Assembly (NCBI GenBank): GCA_041182785.1
Contig: JBEGNB010000360.1
Coordinates: 1-35,924 of the forward strand
DNA length: 35,924 nt
DNA from: Bacteroidota bacterium
Lineage (GTDB): Bacteria > Bacteroidota > Bacteroidia > Chitinophagales > Saprospiraceae
Direction: 5' to 3'
A program made the position numbers and the translations under genes. Positions 10,981-27,341 of this stretch are shown here, in pieces (the stretch's first letter is position 1; each line of letters starts with the position of its first letter). The notes under the pieces were generated by a model, which saw nothing but the letters and a program-made list of their open reading frames with translations, searched no databases and was not told where the DNA came from.

Positions 10981-13356
10981 GTGAAAATATCCCGTCTGAT
11001 CGTCTTCGCCGTACTGCTGTCGGCCCTAACCCCCTGTCTGGCCCAGGAACAGGAGGAAATCGAACGCACTACTGAAGAGGTGGAAACGCTGCTCCGACGA
11101 GCCGCTGCCTCCGCCAGCGATTCAGAAATTGAACAACTCGCCGGAAGGAGCCTGTCCATGGCACGCAGTGTCAGGTACGATGGAGGCATCATCCGCGCCT
11201 GTATCCGCCTTGCCGAACTTTTTGCCCGGCAAGGCAGAACATCCGAAGCGCTCCAGTATTACCTGGAAGCAGAAGCCAAACTGGAAACGAAAGGCAACAA
11301 GGAAACCCTCACCGCTGTGCGGATGGCTCTCGGCGATCTTTTCTTTCGGGAAAAAATGTACGGGTCTGCGAGAAGATACTATGATCAGGTACTTAAATCA
11401 ACGCCCGATAACCCGGAAATACTGGAAAAGGCCGCCGATGCCAGCCTGAATAATCTGCAATTCGAAAGCGCCGACAGTATTTACCAGCAACTGATCGCAG
11501 GATGCAGGGAATCATACAATCTTCCCTGTCAGACCAGAATTTATCAGAAACAAGCCGCCGCCTACGACCAGAACGGAAATTCAGGTAAAAGTCTTTACTT
11601 CTACCTGCGTATCAAGGACATCATTGAGCGATCAGGTACCACTATCGAACAATCGCTGCTTTACAATAACCTGGGCCGCCAATACGCAACGCTGCGCGAT
11701 TATGAAACAGCACTCGAATATTTCAGAAAAGCAGAATTGCAGTGTAAATTCATTGACTGCGACTATAACGAGATCCTGTTCGCCAATATCGGTATCGCAT
11801 TACACAACACCGGACAAACCAGAGAGGGTATTGAATATCTGCTGAAAGCCAGGGATATCCTGGTCGCCAGAAAGGACTTCGCTGCCATGGCGAATCTCGA
11901 ACACCTGCTCGCAACGGTGTATCTCAATAACGGTGATTTTTATAACGCCCTGTCACATAATAACCTGGCTGTCAGATATGCACAGGATACCCGACAGCAA
12001 CGTGTTCTGGCCGAGGCATACAGAACGGCAGCCGATCTCTATCACGAACTGTATGAGTTCGAAAAGGCTTTCGACAACTACAAGGCATATCTGAATATTC
12101 TCGATGCAGTCAGGACGGAAGAACAAGCCCGCGAAATGCAGCTCAGCCAGCAGCGAGCCCTGCTCTCCGAAGCCGAAGGACAAATCAAATTTCTGATTGC
12201 CCGGCAAAATTTCAAGGATCTGGAGTTGTCGCAACTACAGTTCGAAAGTGAAAAATTGTCGCTGCTCAATAAAAATCTGGAACTCGAAACCCGCGAAAAG
12301 GAAAATCAGCTTCAACTGCTGGCTGCTCAGAAAGATGCCGACCAGGCCAAGCTCCGGCAGCAAAGTCTGGAAGTACTGCGCTCCAGACAGGAATCAAAAC
12401 TGGCGGCCCAGCAGCTGGCAGCTGAAAAGCAAACCCGCCTGATTGCTGAACTCAGACAAAAAGAAACGATCGAACGGGCACAGAATATGGCCGACAGTAC
12501 GCGCCGGGCACAAGAACTCTACCGCGTACAGCAGGTACAGGAATATGAGCGACAGAAAGAGGCCAGCTTCCGGGCTTTCGTAACCGGGCTGGGCGCTCTC
12601 GGTGCCATCATCGTCGCACTCCTGCTCGTAGGATGGTGGCTGTCGCGACAAACCGGTCAGCGATTGAAAAACCAGAACCGGCAGATTCAGGAACAAAACA
12701 GGGAAATCGAAGAGGAAAGGCACAAAAGCGAAGGCCTGCTACTCAATATCCTGCCCGAGGAAATAGCCCGGGAGCTCAAGGAAAACGGACAGGCACGCCC
12801 CAAACTGTACCAGTCGGTTACTGTGCTGTTCACCGACTTTATCAATTTTACCCGGCTCTCCACACAACTGACGCCTGGTCAAATTATTGACGAGCTGAAT
12901 GAATGTTTTCTCGCTTTTGATGAAATATGCGAACGCCACAGGCTCGAAAAGATAAAAACTATCGGCGACGCGTACATGTGCGCGGGCGGGCTGCCCGTTA
13001 TCAACGACACGCACCCGACAGATGCCGTCAGGGCCGCTTTTGAAATGATTGACTGGCTCGAAAACAGGAATCGCCAAAACCCCAATGCACTGCTCCGGCA
13101 AATGCGCATCGGTATTCATACCGGCCAGGTGGTTGCAGGCGTTATCGGCAAAAACAAATTCGCCTACGATATCTGGGGAGATGCCGTCAATCTTGCCGCC
13201 CGACTGGAAGAACACGGTGAACATGGCAAAGTGAATGTTTCGGCCACCACTGCCGAGGCTGTCAGTCACCTGTACCGCGTAGAAAACCGGGGGGCATTTT
13301 CTGTGCATAACAAAGGTGACGTAGAGATGTTTTTTGTGTTCAACAGGGATAAATAG
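10981..13356 (+). CDS. membrane-bound class III adenylate cyclase with N-terminal TPR and coiled-coil sensor region
   Basis: A GTG start gives the signal peptide (V/M)KISRLIVFAVLLSALTPCLAQ. Next come about 350 aa of TPR-like repeats, a Q/E/L-rich coiled coil, and one TM helix (FVTGLGALGAIIVALLLVGWWL). The cyclase domain follows, with metal Asp residues (VLFTDF, IGDAYM), a substrate Lys (IKTIGD) and Asp (YDIWGD) that specify adenine, and the catalytic N/R (VNLAARLE). Confidence 0.85.
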   Translation: MKISRLIVFAVLLSALTPCLAQEQEEIERTTEEVETLLRRAAASASDSEIEQLAGRSLSMARSVRYDGGIIRACIRLAELFARQGRTSEALQYYLEAEAKLETKGNKETLTAVRMALGDLFFREKMYGSARRYYDQVLKSTPDNPEILEKAADASLNNLQFESADSIYQQLIAGCRESYNLPCQTRIYQKQAAAYDQNGNSGKSLYFYLRIKDIIERSGTTIEQSLLYNNLGRQYATLRDYETALEYFRKAELQCKFIDCDYNEILFANIGIALHNTGQTREGIEYLLKARDILVARKDFAAMANLEHLLATVYLNNGDFYNALSHNNLAVRYAQDTRQQRVLAEAYRTAADLYHELYEFEKAFDNYKAYLNILDAVRTEEQAREMQLSQQRALLSEAEGQIKFLIARQNFKDLELSQLQFESEKLSLLNKNLELETREKENQLQLLAAQKDADQAKLRQQSLEVLRSRQESKLAAQQLAAEKQTRLIAELRQKETIERAQNMADSTRRAQELYRVQQVQEYERQKEASFRAFVTGLGALGAIIVALLLVGWWLSRQTGQRLKNQNRQIQEQNREIEEERHKSEGLLLNILPEEIARELKENGQARPKLYQSVTVLFTDFINFTRLSTQLTPGQIIDELNECFLAFDEICERHRLEKIKTIGDAYMCAGGLPVINDTHPTDAVRAAFEMIDWLENRNRQNPNALLRQMRIGIHTGQVVAGVIGKNKFAYDIWGDAVNLAARLEEHGEHGKVNVSATTAEAVSHLYRVENRGAFSVHNKGDVEMFFVFNRDK

Positions 13357-14530: not shown

Positions 14531-14635
14531 GAACGACCTCCTGACGAGCATCATTTGGAATTATAACCACCGTCATAAGGCAGCAGTTGTTTCACCTGCA
14601 ATTTTGCAGTGCGAATCACCAAACTGCACTGCTCT

Positions 14636-15499
14636 ATGAAAAAAATACTTGTCCCCGTTGATTTCTCCGATAACGCCGAAAACGCCCTTTTTGTAGCCGC
14701 CGAAGTAGCCCGCAAAAGCGGCGCCGTACTCGAATTGCTCCATGTGAATGTGGCTTCCGTGTATGCTGCGCCCCTGTCGGAGTTCTCCCCCGCATCCGGC
14801 TACACCATTGAAGACAATAACTACGACGAAACCGCGGGTGCCGGACTCGAACGCATCAAGACGGAGTTGCTGGGCAATCCCGAGTACGCCGGGCTGGAAA
14901 TCCAGACCAGGGTTGGCGACGGCTACCTGCACAGTACCATCAAAAACGTTGCTGAAGAAGACGGCGTTGATCTGGTCGTCATGGGAACCAGGGGAGCCTC
15001 CGGACTGAACGAGTTTCTGCTGGGCTCCAATACGGAGAAAGTTATCCGTACCGCCCCTTGCCCGGTGCTTGCTGTACCTGCGGGCGCAGAAAAATTCAGA
15101 CCCAAAACGGTGTTGCTGCCTACTACACTGAAAGACGACCAGCTCACTACATTCCGCTTTCTGGCAGAATGGCAGAAGATCTTCGGATTCACCGTGCAGA
15201 TACTGTACATGAATAACCCGTCGGCGCTGGAAACAGACTCCTCAGCAGAAGATCTGAAAAATGCACTGGCCCAAAAGGCTGGTCTCAATGCATCCGAAGC
15301 AATCATTACTACAGAATCCTTCTTTGAGGATACTACCATACTCGGATTCTCGGATCAGGTAAAAGCTGATCTGATTGTGATGGCCACGCATCAGCGGAAG
15401 GGTATATCCCATGTCGTATTTGGCAGCATCACAGAAGATACCGTCAACCACTCACATGTTCCTGTACTCGCTGTTCCTGTAAACTGGAGTATTGCGTAA
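14636..15499 (+). CDS. universal stress protein, tandem Usp domains
   Basis: The ATG at 14636 gives MKKILVPVDFSDNAENAL. There are two Usp modules, each with an ATP-type G-x2-G-x9-G(S/T) motif (VMGTRGASGLNEFLLGSNTEKV and VMATHQRKGISHVVFGSITEDTV). Confidence 0.85.
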   Translation: MKKILVPVDFSDNAENALFVAAEVARKSGAVLELLHVNVASVYAAPLSEFSPASGYTIEDNNYDETAGAGLERIKTELLGNPEYAGLEIQTRVGDGYLHSTIKNVAEEDGVDLVVMGTRGASGLNEFLLGSNTEKVIRTAPCPVLAVPAGAEKFRPKTVLLPTTLKDDQLTTFRFLAEWQKIFGFTVQILYMNNPSALETDSSAEDLKNALAQKAGLNASEAIITTESFFEDTTILGFSDQVKADLIVMATHQRKGISHVVFGSITEDTVNHSHVPVLAVPVNWSIA

Positions 15500-24370: not shown

Positions 24371-24406
24371 ACAAGACCGCAACCCGCGGTTGCAGTCTCC
24401 TCAATG

Positions 24407-24444
24407 TCCCGAATTCTTTCCTCGGAAGGAATTCGGGATTTTTT
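24407..24444 (+). terminator. rho-independent terminator after the T9SS gene, sitting on the stop codon of the convergent DUF4132 gene
   Basis: A 13-bp stem, TCCCGAATTCTTT (24407-24419) with AAGGAATTCGGGA (24426-24438), includes one G-U and has a 6-nt loop. T6 follows at 24439-24444. A second small hairpin, GCAACC-CGC-GGTTGC, lies at 24379-24393. On the minus strand the hairpin follows the gene's TAA directly but has no U-tract. Confidence 0.7.
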
Positions 24445-26899
24445 ATAGCTGTAACAGAATGGTAGGGTCAGTTATCTTTTCGTCACTGGCCAGAAGAATG
24501 GCCTTGCTGATGATGACAGACAAAAGCGTATCTCCTTCAAATGGCAGATATATCGGCTCTTTCTCACGCCTGGCAGCCTGATCCGGAACTATACACAGAT
24601 ACTTGTCATTCGGCGACATCAGTATATTGCCGCTGCCGCAGTGTATTTTATAAAGATGCCTGGTACCCTGCACCATCAGATAGCGCCCTTCGAAACGACA
24701 CTGCGGGGCAATCTTAAGCCGGGGTATCATTTTTTTCAGGGCCTCCAGACGCACCTCTCCACTGGCCGACAACTCCTCGGCAAAAGCATAGCGATTCCAG
24801 TAATCTCTCAGTCGCTGATTACCCGAATCCTGCCAGTTGGGATCATTCCCGATACTGCATACTCCCACAAACAGATCAACATCCCGCATCAACTCGGAAA
24901 ATACAACTGGTGGTACGTCCGGCATATTCACCTGACGACCCTGATGACTGAAACGCACCTGATCGGTATATACGTACTGGTAAATGCCTGAATCAAGTGT
25001 GTCGTCCAGATCATTGGTCTCTATCCAGAATTCAATGCGGTATTCCCAGGACGGTACGTCTTTGTGCGGGGTGACAGGATTGTAAAAGTCTCCCTGTAAT
25101 TTATAGTGCCAGCCTCGCAAACCACAAAGCGCAGCAAACTGATGCTGTCTGAGTACATGGGCAGCAAATCTGTTTGAATAGGAGCTGGTACGTATCTCCG
25201 GGGGCGTAACCACGTAAACTTCCCGGTACGCCTGTTTGAATGGCTGGGTAATCTGTCGCTCTTCCAGCCAGTTGCGCCAGGCCAGCACATCGCCAGCTTC
25301 TACCAGTATCGGGTGCCATAATGTAACACGGGCATCAGATGGAAAAATATTTGCTATTACACCTTCCGGACTGTGCCAGTTACCCTCATGGAAAATTGCA
25401 TCTATTGTTTTTGTTTCGTACTCCAGTCGCCACACAAGCCGGCGACCAATAAATTTCAGTACCGGATGATTGAGCAGCCTGTCGGCCAGCTGGGCACAAG
25501 TCCAGGTTCTTTTCTCCAGCCACGCAGATTCAAGCGTTCTGGAAATTCCACCCAGCGCATCTTTTATTTCACTCTGCCGGGCTGTAAGTGCCTTGTATGC
25601 TGCGGCCTGTTCTTTTTTAACGGATACCGGAGCCGATTTAAGTGTTTTCAGACTACCCCTCTGCATCCATCTGATCAAAACACTGGCATTATTTTCAATA
25701 CTGAGCACAGCTTCGTATTCCCCGAAATCGAAAGCAGCCATACCATTCTCATCCAGCCCGAAGTCGGGTATTCCGATCTCCATTAATGCCCCCGGGGTCA
25801 GATTATCGCGCGAGGCCAATTTTTGGAGTACTTTTTCAATTGTACCCCTGATTGTTTTATTCACTGCTCTCTTCTGCTGCCGAAGGATATGTATAATACC
25901 CGAATTATCGGGCATTAACGCAAAGGCATGGATACAGGCATTTCCGGTTTTCACAGAAAGCGGACCTATACCGGGTACTTTTTTAAACGACAAGTCTGCC
26001 AGATCGGAAAGTGCCTGCCTGATACCGGGCTCATCTGAAAGGCTCAGGCCTGCATACCAGATGAACGGAGAAACCCAGGCGGGAATATCCGGTTTATACC
26101 TCCACATATTCTGCTGATTCGGCAGGTTTTTATGGTCTGACCGAAGTAATTCGCACCATTTTTCCAAAAAAAGGACAGTTTTCCTTGCCAGCCTGACCTT
26201 GTCAAGATCTCCGGTTATTTCCGTCACATCCTTATTCCACTTCGGCGAAGGGGCACTTTTATCGCTGTAATCAAGACATAATTTAAGCAGCTCCCTTACC
26301 CTGGTATTATTCACTGCCAACAACTGACCCGTAACCGGAGCAAACTCCCCGTAATACCTGTCGGTAAAGAGTTCCCTGTACAATCCGTCGGAGTTGGTGG
26401 CTGAGGGAGAATTCAGTTCATCGAGTGTTTTTTGCTGAAATGCCGTCGGGAGAGCAGCCTTCTTCTTCAGCTTGATATACAAGTGTTTCAGGGAAAGGGC
26501 AAGCAATTCCCTTTTAATGAACGCGCCCTCTTTGTTTATAAAAGTTGCGAATAAATGAGCCAGCTCAAATTGCGCATCTATATTGCGCATCATCTGAATA
26601 TGCTGAATGAAGGAGGCCCAACTGCCTTCAGTATGTCCGGGAAGCAGTGTCCGAATCAGTTCGGAGACCCATACGCCTCCGGATTCCGGATCTTCGTCGA
26701 AGGCAACAATCAGCCGAATGACTACCTCGCTGCGGGTATCAGCGGGCATTTTTATGAGTTTTTTCCACGACTCCAACTGTTCCGGATGATGTACGGTACC
26801 CGTTGACATCTTCTCCGAAATATCAGAAATCAGGCTCCCTGTGTTATCTCTGCCAGCGAACCGATCCTTTAATATCTGTAAAAAACTGTACTTAGCCAC
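24443..26899 (-). CDS. DUF4132 / MolR(YehI)-like protein, function unknown
   Basis: 818-aa ORF. The C-terminal ~330 aa carry motifs I associate with the DUF4132 family and its conserved tail: LWHPI, QPFKQAYREVY, YSNRFAAHVLRQHQFAALCGLRGW, HCGSGNILMSPNDKYLCIVP, LSVIISKAILLASDEKITDPTI. The N-terminal ~480 aa are helical-looking with no recognised domain and no WGR motif. The start is a GTG at 26899 overlapping the upstream ORF by 8 nt; the first ATG is at 26809. Family call is from memory, with no HMM run. Confidence 0.6.
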   Translation of the reverse strand: MAKYSFLQILKDRFAGRDNTGSLISDISEKMSTGTVHHPEQLESWKKLIKMPADTRSEVVIRLIVAFDEDPESGGVWVSELIRTLLPGHTEGSWASFIQHIQMMRNIDAQFELAHLFATFINKEGAFIKRELLALSLKHLYIKLKKKAALPTAFQQKTLDELNSPSATNSDGLYRELFTDRYYGEFAPVTGQLLAVNNTRVRELLKLCLDYSDKSAPSPKWNKDVTEITGDLDKVRLARKTVLFLEKWCELLRSDHKNLPNQQNMWRYKPDIPAWVSPFIWYAGLSLSDEPGIRQALSDLADLSFKKVPGIGPLSVKTGNACIHAFALMPDNSGIIHILRQQKRAVNKTIRGTIEKVLQKLASRDNLTPGALMEIGIPDFGLDENGMAAFDFGEYEAVLSIENNASVLIRWMQRGSLKTLKSAPVSVKKEQAAAYKALTARQSEIKDALGGISRTLESAWLEKRTWTCAQLADRLLNHPVLKFIGRRLVWRLEYETKTIDAIFHEGNWHSPEGVIANIFPSDARVTLWHPILVEAGDVLAWRNWLEERQITQPFKQAYREVYVVTPPEIRTSSYSNRFAAHVLRQHQFAALCGLRGWHYKLQGDFYNPVTPHKDVPSWEYRIEFWIETNDLDDTLDSGIYQYVYTDQVRFSHQGRQVNMPDVPPVVFSELMRDVDLFVGVCSIGNDPNWQDSGNQRLRDYWNRYAFAEELSASGEVRLEALKKMIPRLKIAPQCRFEGRYLMVQGTRHLYKIHCGSGNILMSPNDKYLCIVPDQAARREKEPIYLPFEGDTLLSVIISKAILLASDEKITDPTILLQL

Positions 26900-27296
26900 C
26901 CACCAGAGGAGTTGTCTTGACGAAGGTAACAGTTGTTTTATCCGTCATTCTGAGCGGCGCCTCCAAATTTTCCACCTGTATATCGTCCACCAGAACGAAA
27001 TAGGCATTCTGCTGAAAAGCCTTGAGCGCCCTGTATCCATGAGCCTCCGGATCAGGCATTTCTCCGGGTTTGCGCTTTTCCCTGACACCATTCAGCGTAC
27101 GCTCTTTCTCGTCCATCTCGAAGGCGAGTGCCATGAACCGCTGATGTTTTTCATCCTCCCTTCTTTTGATTTCCTCTTCCACACGCAGCATGATAATTTC
27201 ACGAAGCGTCATTACTTCCGAACCAACAGGGACAGATATCTCCTGAATCAGTTTACCCGTCAGGGTTTCATCCTTGAACGTGACCGAAAATGCCAT
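26892..27296 (-). CDS. small ThiS/MoaD/ubiquitin-like (beta-grasp) candidate protein with free C-terminal Gly-Gly
   Basis: 134-aa ORF with an ATG start and protein-like composition. The N-terminus FSVTFKDETLTGKLIQEISVPVGSEVMTLREIIMLRV reads strand-turn-strand-helix. A ~50-aa charged insert follows. The C-terminus YFVLVDDIQVENLEAPLRMTDKTTVTFVKTTPLVGG-stop parallels MoaD/ThiS C-termini. The antisense ORF 26841..27302 has junk-like composition (rich in R/H/F/C). The fold call is inference. Confidence 0.45.
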   Translation of the reverse strand: MAFSVTFKDETLTGKLIQEISVPVGSEVMTLREIIMLRVEEEIKRREDEKHQRFMALAFEMDEKERTLNGVREKRKPGEMPDPEAHGYRALKAFQQNAYFVLVDDIQVENLEAPLRMTDKTTVTFVKTTPLVGG

Positions 27297-27341
27297 AAAT
27301 AATTTATTTTTGGAAAGGTAGGGATTAATTTTAAAACAAAA

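Follow-up and report, generated by a model that had tools for sequence, protein, structure and literature searches.

Two overlapping genes at the locus

We analysed a 35,924-nt stretch of DNA from a Saprospiraceae bacterium (Bacteroidota; GenBank assembly GCA_041182785.1, contig JBEGNB010000360.1, positions 1 to 35,924), referred to as the window throughout, and followed up a small minus-strand gene whose 134-aa product ends in Gly-Gly. This gene overlaps that of an 818-aa protein carrying the domains DUF4132 and DUF7737, and it is the pair, its distribution and its possible chemistry that are considered here. The features of the two genes that are needed first are as follows, with the evidence for each in brackets.

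26892..27296 (including stop), minus strand: gene of the 134-aa predicted beta-grasp protein with a free C-terminal Gly-Gly (open reading frame (ORF) call, homologues, AlphaFold2 (AF2) model, Foldseek)
26895..26900, minus strand: codons GGT GGC, encoding the invariant di-glycine Gly133-Gly134 (sequence, alignments)
27036..27182, minus strand: charged 'insert', residues 39-87 (AF2 secondary structure, pLDDT, conservation)
24443..26899, minus strand: gene of the 818-aa partner (Pfam, cross-phylum alignments, adjacency counts)

Exactly one ORF, with an ATG start, occupies 26892..27296 on the minus strand. Its 134-aa translation is MAFSVTFKDETLTGKLIQEISVPVGSEVMTLREIIMLRVEEEIKRREDEKHQRFMALAFEMDEKERTLNGVREKRKPGEMPDPEAHGYRALKAFQQNAYFVLVDDIQVENLEAPLRMTDKTTVTFVKTTPLVGG, and the TAA stop codon (26892-26894) directly follows the C-terminus ...TFVKTTPLVGG. 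The ORF listing thereby confirmed the gene as described in a first-pass annotation made from the DNA letters, and the three sequence segments quoted there were all found verbatim in the ORF. A 153-aa ORF on the plus strand (26841-27302) spans the whole small gene in antisense; it is without support and is almost certainly a shadow ORF.

The two genes share 8 nt. Within this overlap the GTG start codon of the partner (26897-26899) is formed from both glycine codons, GGT GGC being read as G-GTG-GC, an arrangement from which translational coupling of the small gene and the partner gene is predicted. Overlap or abutment of start and stop is also found in other phyla and is the usual arrangement.

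An invariant Gly-Gly terminus in a widespread family

A first homologue search recovered 71 proteins of ~127-140 aa, ranging from Bacteroidota to Actinomycetota, 70 of which keep the Gly-Gly terminus. In an alignment of 41 sequences with identity down to 35%, Gly133 and Gly134 are invariant and the motif ...PLVGG is nearly so. When a profile was searched against 1.84 billion cluster representatives (50% identity clusters), 2,371 clusters were found at E <= 1e-3 and 1,351 at E <= 1e-10. The family is spread over ~12 phyla. It is covered by no Pfam or NCBIfam model, and its members are annotated merely as "hypothetical protein".

The terminus was retained throughout. It is present in 148 of the 150 best representatives of the 50%-identity clusters, both exceptions looking like frameshifted gene calls, and in 79 of 80 independent metagenome loci. 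Across ~300 main-family sequences the terminal GG-COOH is invariant, with no C-terminal extension. Conservation of this end is far beyond chance, and since the chain always stops right after Gly-Gly, a processing protease is unneeded. The proposal that a free, unprocessed Gly-Gly end is functionally important was thus upheld by the alignment, the clusters and the metagenome loci alike, and the orthologue comparison suggested in the first-pass annotation gave the predicted invariance for this part of the protein.

One database entry, a 969-aa protein (P0175), is a gene call that appears to start in a DUF4132 protein, to continue out of frame for ~200 aa and to end in a small Gly-Gly protein encoded downstream. 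It is an annotation artefact, yet it documents the alternative gene order, with the partner followed by the small gene.

A predicted beta-grasp fold with a conserved helical segment

An AF2 model of the 134-aa protein, built from the 41-sequence alignment, reached a pLDDT of 75.4 and a pTM of 0.66. It opens with a beta-hairpin and a long helix, continues through a short helix and a low-confidence loop to a second helix, and closes with four strands and a disordered tail at residues 128-134 (strands E, helices H: E3-11, E16-24, H31-60, H63-68, H83-95, E99-103, E106-108, E114-116, E122-127), with pLDDT values of 80-90 in the strands and <50 in the tail. When this model was compared with the PDB using Foldseek, the top 50 matches were almost entirely beta-grasp proteins. 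Neighbours included MoaD/MOCS2A (6jc0, 6jbz, 5mpo; probability 0.93-0.97, TM 0.5-0.65 by target length), together with the ubiquitin-like protein 2jvc, NEDD8, ubiquitin, SUMO, RBDs and superantigen-like beta-grasp domains. The structure check proposed at the outset therefore returned neighbours that were nearly all beta-grasp proteins, MoaD and ubiquitin among them, although no E-value was <= 1e-3. A published prediction for a Deinococcus homologue independently found structural neighbours of MoaD, SAMP1 and Urm1 type (PMC9650054). On the basis of the model and the Foldseek list, whose E-values all exceed 0.02, we accept at fold level the earlier suggestion that the small protein has a beta-grasp (ubiquitin-like) fold, as predicted.

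The further suggestion of kinship with the ThiS and MoaD sequence families did not hold. Searches of the window protein and its relatives gave no Pfam, NCBIfam, PADLOC or PDB-sequence match. Pfam ThiS (PF02597) failed to match it, and only one of the 41 aligned members was hit, below cut-off (E = 0.068). A family profile run against all PDB chain sequences found no ThiS, MoaD or ubiquitin, and nothing emerged when hhalign was run with manually entered sequences of ubiquitin and of MoaD and ThiS from E. coli (MoaD/ThiS probability <1%). Membership of the ThiS, MoaD or ubiquitin sequence families was rejected, the Pfam, NCBIfam, PDB phmmer/hmmsearch and hhalign results all being negative.

The charged middle of the protein, described earlier as an insert of ~50 aa, was also assessed. 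In the AF2 model, residues 39-87 comprise an extension of helix 1, the short helix, the low-confidence loop with a conserved E-R-T-L-N-G, and the start of helix 2. Among 134 diverse representatives with 26-49% identity to the window protein, this segment equals the N-terminal region in conservation (mean frequency of the top residue 0.49 versus 0.48), carries a conserved E-x-x-L-N-G motif and is nearly fixed in length (median 46, range 42-57). A charged segment of ~49 residues is thus present as described, but it is not a variable insertion; the expectation that it would vary among orthologues was refuted by both its conservation and its near-constant length.

The DUF4132+DUF7737 partner

Both domains of the partner score well above their Pfam gathering cut-offs, which are 27 bits in each case: DUF4132 (PF13569) at 1.4e-41 and 142.8 bits, and DUF7737 (PF24879) at 3e-36 and 124 bits. 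They were placed from Pfam and alignments at the following positions.

25109..25648, minus strand: DUF4132 domain, partner residues 418-597, with invariant LWHP, QPFKQAxRE and YSNRF
24446..24757, minus strand: DUF7737 domain, partner residues 715-818, with invariant YKIHxGSGN, YLCIV, LPFEGD and SKAxLLAxD

Across phyla, the N-terminal ~400 aa of the partner are poorly conserved and the C-terminal ~440 aa very strongly so, with YSNRFAAHxxRQHQF, RGW, SExMRDxDLFxGV and GNDPxW as further motifs. Cys769 (nt 24593-24595), which lies in YLCIV, is the single invariant cysteine; His529, Lys555, Arg559, Glu669, His753 and Lys799 are likewise invariant. An AF2 model of residues 381-818 was fairly confident (pLDDT 82), and Foldseek found no meaningful structural neighbour for it in the PDB or BFVD (TM ~0.1); assigning a function to the partner by its fold was consequently dropped. 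We also considered whether the H-x-G-x-G-N ... Cys arrangement of DUF7737 could be read as E2-like. This was supported by none of hhalign, Foldseek or Pfam: hhalign of DUF7737 against two manually entered UBC sequences gave a probability of <1%, no UQ_con Pfam match was found in the partner, and no E2 appeared among the top Foldseek matches of its model.

At four loci (L025, L046, L053, L056) partner paralogues stand in tandem, two or three in a row, accompanied by one small Gly-Gly gene in L025 and in L046 and by two in L056. The large protein may thus have been duplicated locally and have diversified.

Conserved gene pairing and its genomic context

The association of the two genes was followed across genomes in several ways. 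A contig look-up of four distant small-protein homologues (from an actinomycete, a JGI Bacteroidota-like contig, a planctomycete-like contig and one further contig) revealed the same pair each time, in the company of wholly different other genes. Relatives of the partner, sought in one genome per species, were found in at least 544 genomes. The 80 loci retained come from Bacteroidota, Verrucomicrobiota, Planctomycetota, Actinomycetota, Cyanobacteria/Obscuribacterales, Chloroflexota, Acidobacteriota, Gemmatimonadota, Deinococcota, Myxococcota, Armatimonadota and Proteobacteria. Using the small-protein hidden Markov model (HMM), the small gene was detected next to the partner and on the same strand in 70 of the 75 decidable genome loci, mostly upstream, with ~9 loci in which it lies downstream; of the 80 loci, five are cut by contig ends and five truly have no small gene within ~5 kb. 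In the metagenome set, which is centred on the small gene, the partner was adjacent at all 51 loci with enough flanking DNA to decide. Overall, the pairing holds in ~121 of 126 decidable loci. We found no earlier description of it in the literature on DUF4132, DUF7737 and WGR/beta-grasp proteins.

By contrast, no small Gly-Gly gene was found near DUF4132 proteins that lack DUF7737 (E. coli YehI, an actinomycete DUF4132-only protein, and a WGR+DUF4132 protein with MoxR/VWA neighbours), and we conclude that the small gene tracks with DUF7737. E. coli YehK was considered as an equivalent small partner of YehI and set aside, being unrelated and without Gly-Gly. The WGR+DUF4132 proteins without DUF7737 from Streptomyces (L176) and from the E. 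coli yehF-yehQ region (L174) have a different conserved neighbourhood, consisting of a MoxR AAA+ ATPase, DUF5682/YehM, a VWA protein and a SWIM protein. They seem to belong to a distinct, uncharacterised system with nothing but the DUF4132 domain in common with the present one.

Beyond the pair itself, clustering of all flanking ORFs in ~160 neighbourhoods identified no universal third gene. The window is ordinary Bacteroidota chromosome, its closest relatives being Saprospiraceae/Bacteroidetes metagenome-assembled genomes, and it contains no E1, E2, JAB, rhodanese, thi or moa genes. A link to thiamine or molybdopterin genes thus has no support in the window, and no thi/moa-type neighbour recurs in the 160 loci. 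A single locus adjoins a moaA-moeA-moaC-mobA-moeB cluster: there (L122:274-8925) the pair lies ~650 nt downstream of moaA-moeA-moaC-mobA-like-moeB (ThiF+rhodanese), with no moaD or moaE visible in the stretch; this single case may be coincidence.

These contextual data bear on one interpretation of the small protein, namely that it works in thiamine or molybdopterin synthesis as a normal orthologue of ThiS or MoaD that has merely diverged by insertion. Its C-terminus resembles those of MoaD and ThiS, MoaD is its best structural neighbour, one locus lies beside a moa/moe cluster, and the E. coli WGR+DUF4132 protein was formerly named MolR (cited in PMC8533742). However, besides the missing PF02597 match, neither thiG, thiH, thiF nor moaE neighbours the gene in the window or recurrently elsewhere, the invariable partner is a DUF4132+DUF7737 protein and not MoaE or ThiG, and D. 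radiodurans has a separate MoaD and MoaE (PMC9650054). Genomic context effectively refutes a plain orthologue of this kind, which we regard as highly improbable.

A role as an anti-phage defence system was likewise rejected, there being no PADLOC match, variable housekeeping neighbourhoods and only four plasmid or chromid matches. One Cyclobacteriaceae locus in which small gene, partner and a ThiF gene follow one another (L022:8867-13581) is among the few with the look of a defence or mobile island: upstream of it is a gene for an XRE-like regulator, and the next genes, judged by reading their N-terminal sequences, resemble type I restriction-modification subunits.

Downstream of the partner in the window, a consensus scan and pattern match identified two further features.

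24406..24439, no strand assigned: strong hairpin with a 15-bp stem, in the gap that separates the stop codon of the partner from the convergent upstream gene
24390-24376, minus strand: further terminator-like site

The hairpin is likely to be a bidirectional terminator that closes a two-gene operon. Two ordinary plus-strand genes a few kb upstream of the locus are unlinked to the finding, one encoding a TPR-repeat protein fused to an adenylate/guanylate cyclase domain (10981-13356) and the other a tandem universal stress protein (14609-15499).

A sister branch and the Deinococcus pair

Larger proteins of ~1,630 aa with a DUF5724+DUF4132+DUF7737 architecture were found to have a homologous gene of 134-138 aa directly upstream (HMM E = 1e-13 to 1e-17). 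The small genes of this sister subfamily and the corresponding Deinococcus radiodurans locus are located as follows.

L170:5563-5979, L172:3542-3958 and L173:3564-3980: sister-subfamily small genes, upstream of the 1,630-aa proteins
L177, chromosome II NZ_OV024759.1 43323-48610: D. radiodurans pair

In this branch the C-terminus differs between lineages. The Bacteroides-type small proteins end in ...MLAG-RKF or ...MLAG-RRW; they are either pro-forms that need cleavage or variants without C-terminal chemistry. The Deinococcus small protein of the same branch ends in ...LAGG. This protein, DR_A0165, has 134 aa and is found by the family HMM at 3e-17, and DR_A0166 carries DUF4132+DUF7737; by these sequence matches the two were verified as true homologues of the pair.

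Published work on the two Deinococcus genes provides the available experimental data. The drA0165-drA0166 operon is a target of DdrO, which governs the radiation/desiccation response, with an RDRM at -83, and mitomycin C induces the DRA0166 protein through IrrE-dependent control (PMC8533742). SEP068184/DR_A0165 rises after gamma irradiation and after H2O2, its knock-out gives greater H2O2 resistance, and the protein is cytoplasmic and binds thioredoxin Trx1 in pull-downs along with many co-purifying proteins (PMC9650054). The two studies conflict on the RDRM upstream of DR_A0165, which is placed at -83 in one (PMC8533742) and reported as none in the other (PMC9650054). The latter described DR_A0165 as Deinococcus-specific with a MoaD-like predicted structure, and analysed only an 83-aa part of the protein that RefSeq now annotates as 134 aa (PMC9650054). 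On these published data, the pair belongs, in Deinococcus at least, to the DNA-damage and oxidative-stress response. A possible sulfur link through YeeE/YedE and TrxC upstream of DR_A0165 was dropped, as this arrangement is not conserved in D. ficus or D. psychrotolerans.

MoeB/ThiF-type E1 genes in some operons

In three Bacteroidota genomes, genes of the ThiF family (PF00899, E = 1e-50 to 3e-66) begin at or near the partner's stop codon. A search with the ThiF HMM added four metagenome loci with the order small gene, partner, ThiF, making seven operons in total, and a link to E1 enzymes is supported to the extent that MoeB/ThiF-type genes belong to the operon at these seven loci. Kordia aestuariivivens (L064) and the Cyclobacteriaceae locus (L022) are among the carriers of an operon ThiF. 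The encoded E1s score best against the ThiF, MoeB and UbaA models, yet below every equivalog cut-off (for UbaA, 1e-36 to 6e-55, under its cut-off). All keep GxGGxG, NLxRQ, DCTDN and the crossover-loop Cys, and they have neither rhodanese domains nor CxxC zinc pairs. By rough estimate, assuming 2-3 ThiF genes per ~4,000-gene genome, ~0.1 such adjacency would be expected by chance in ~130 loci. Among the seven operons the partners are 45-61% identical and the ThiFs just 28-54% identical; given this deep divergence, the ThiF adjacency has been retained or re-created over long times.

An alternative reading is that the small protein is a non-covalent regulatory or structural subunit whose ...PLVGG tail is a docking peptide with its carboxylate held in a pocket, the ThiF neighbour being incidental or lineage-specific. 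Neither adenylation nor transfer chemistry would then take place. Many beta-grasp domains serve purely for interaction. Such a role fits the universal pairing and the translational coupling, as do the 95% of loci without an E1 in cis and the sister branch, in which proteins ending in AG-RKF or AG-RRW keep the pairing. Against this, the last two residues and the exact end are strictly invariant in ~300 sequences at 26-49% identity, a hallmark of carboxylate chemistry, whereas a docking peptide would accept G-to-A or G-to-S changes or extensions; moreover, the ThiF adjacency was either kept through deep divergence or recruited repeatedly. We consider a purely non-covalent role unlikely.

The E1 genes also raise the question of whether the small protein is a true modifier of the SAMP/TtuB/Urm1 type, linked by an isopeptide bond to target lysines after E1 adenylation, with the partner serving as an E2/E3-like factor, an adaptor or the main target. 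Transfer would then proceed via the partner's invariant Cys769/His753 and signal during DNA-damage or oxidative stress. SAMPs, TtuB and Urm1 are conjugated by an E1 only, with no E2. The beta-grasp fold with its invariant free Gly-Gly, the E1 in cis in seven operons, and the design of the partner (its large size, the weak conservation of its N-terminal ~400 aa, and one invariant Cys and His in DUF7737, the domain that tracks with the small protein) are all compatible with modification, as are the stress induction and the many co-purifying proteins in Deinococcus (PMC8533742; PMC9650054). Yet no E2, RING or JAB/DUB gene recurs in the ~160 neighbourhoods, unlike in Bil, Bub and Cap2 operons, DUF7737 has no detectable similarity to UBC E2s, the operon E1s are nearest to sulfur-carrier E1s, and no conjugates have been reported for DR_A0165. 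Protein modification of this kind is conceivable, though in our judgement rather unlikely.

Proposed mechanism

Our preferred interpretation, held with moderate confidence, is that the 134-aa protein is an E1-activated Gly-Gly carrier and the small subunit of a two-protein machine with the DUF4132+DUF7737 partner. It is suggested by the invariant unprocessed Gly-Gly tail, the coupled partner, the sporadic but deeply retained E1s, and the lack of E2 or DUB genes. In ThiS-ThiG, MoaD-MoaE and CysO-CysM the carrier gene lies beside its user and the E1 is often encoded elsewhere. A carrier that always stands beside its user protein, with an E1 often elsewhere, follows the pattern of ThiS-ThiG and MoaD-MoaE and not that of E1-E2-DUB operons.

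According to this model, the flexible, unprocessed C-terminal Gly-Gly would be the working part of a carrier with a ubiquitin/MoaD fold. The carrier would be made in fixed proportion with the partner via the overlapping genes and would act as its small subunit. Its Gly-Gly carboxylate would be adenylated by a MoeB/ThiF-type E1, encoded within the operon in some lineages and, in this genome, presumably a housekeeping E1 acting in trans. The activated tail would then be used at, or handed to, the strongly conserved C-terminal module of the partner. The class of fold, the invariant Gly-Gly, the obligate pairing, the E1 linkage in scattered loci and the induction reported in the literature are what the data show; that the tail is adenylated, that the two proteins form a complex and what is transferred chemically, we infer. 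The entity transferred may be either sulfur or a protein tag, and a thiocarboxylate or acyl-carrier role at the partner seems somewhat more likely than free protein tagging. A more specific version, in which the E1-activated Gly-Gly protein is loaded onto the DUF7737 Cys, a new acceptor/ligase domain, and marks proteins or delivers sulfur under DNA-damage or oxidative stress, is put forward only tentatively.

Several observations weigh against the carrier proposal. With regard to the small protein, the searches made revealed no kinship with ThiS, MoaD or ubiquitin at the level of sequence, the Foldseek E-values are weak (the best being 0.025, and none reaching 1e-3), and the AF2 model is only moderately confident in its middle third. 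The Bacteroides-type proteins retain the pairing with ends other than Gly-Gly, so a free Gly-Gly is not universally required for pairing. As for the partner, its predicted structure and sequence bear no resemblance to a known sulfur-insertion enzyme, a ligase or a solved fold, and its very large size and poorly conserved N-terminal region are unusual for a small-molecule synthase. An E1 is found in cis in just ~5% of loci, and all seven E1 operons fall within a single region of the partner tree in which Bacteroidota dominate (7 of ~28 decidable loci there). Finally, genes for a rhodanese, a cysteine desulfurase, an E2 or a JAB protein do not recur in the ~160 neighbourhoods.

Significance

Ubiquitin signalling has its evolutionary root in beta-grasp proteins with a free Gly-Gly and, to our knowledge, each new bacterial system (ThiS, MoaD, CysO, TtuB, Bil, Bub) has revealed new chemistry. 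The fold and the Gly-Gly principle described here are known; the family, its conserved helical segment, the exclusive DUF4132+DUF7737 partner and the link to stress responses set the present system apart. The family is large (at least 2,371 clusters at 50% identity), with the partner present in the genomes of >500 species from about a dozen phyla. The DUF4132, DUF7737 and DUF5724 families of the partner, which include relatives of E. coli YehI/MolR, are without known function or fold. The tie to the DdrO-regulon pair DR_A0165/DR_A0166 turns what had seemed a species-specific micro-peptide result into a general question. The hypotheses raised are Gly-Gly-dependent adenylation by the operon ThiF, a complex with DUF7737, and a role in DNA-damage and oxidative stress. 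Were the ubiquitin-like protein loaded on the DUF7737 Cys, this would provide the first biochemical function for the orphan DUF4132/DUF7737/DUF5724 proteins, and would add to bacteria a previously unrecognised and very widespread ubiquitin-like pathway that is independent of E2 and of defence.

Comparison with known systems

The bacterial Bil, Bub, CBASS Cap2/Cap3 and 6E systems share with the present pair a prokaryotic beta-grasp protein with a C-terminal Gly and, in some operons, an E1. They differ in always encoding E1, E2 and JAB/DUB and in residing in defence islands, whereas here no E2/DUB recurs, the locus is in ordinary chromosome and PADLOC finds no match at it. Consistent with this difference, the operon E1s match Cap2-type models much more weakly than they match ThiF and MoeB.

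Urm1, SAMPs and TtuB are free-Gly-Gly beta-grasp proteins that rely on a MoeB/UbaA-like E1 and have no E2 or E3 of their own, and judging by gene content the same may apply here. A link to oxidative stress is common to both, and the published neighbours of the Deinococcus homologue include SAMP1 and a Urm1-like protein. Unlike the protein described here, they are not bound to one particular large partner gene, and the pair has no tRNA-thiolation enzyme (TtuA/Ncs6) nearby.

DR_A0165/DR_A0166 is the only member of the family with experimental data. DR_A0166 represents the long form of the partner, with a DUF5724 N-terminal region of 1,200 aa, unlike the 818-aa partner in the window. The authors of the study of DR_A0165 treated it as a Deinococcus-specific micro-peptide, and the Gly-Gly end, the wide family and the pairing went unremarked (PMC9650054).

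Close parallels in overall design are MoaD-MoaE, ThiS-ThiG and CysO-CysM. There, as here, a small beta-grasp protein with a flexible tail and a free Gly-Gly end is encoded next to, and translationally coupled with, a larger user protein, and the MoeB/ThiF-type E1 is often encoded elsewhere. Compared with MoaD and ThiS, the small protein has a conserved helical segment of ~49 residues between helix 1 and strand 3, belongs to neither sequence family and has no cofactor-pathway genes around it. In place of MoaE, ThiG or CysM stands a DUF4132+DUF7737 protein of 818 to 1,630 aa, with no similarity to them or to a solved fold. And whereas MoaD and ThiS are housekeeping proteins, the pair described here is stress-induced in the one organism studied.

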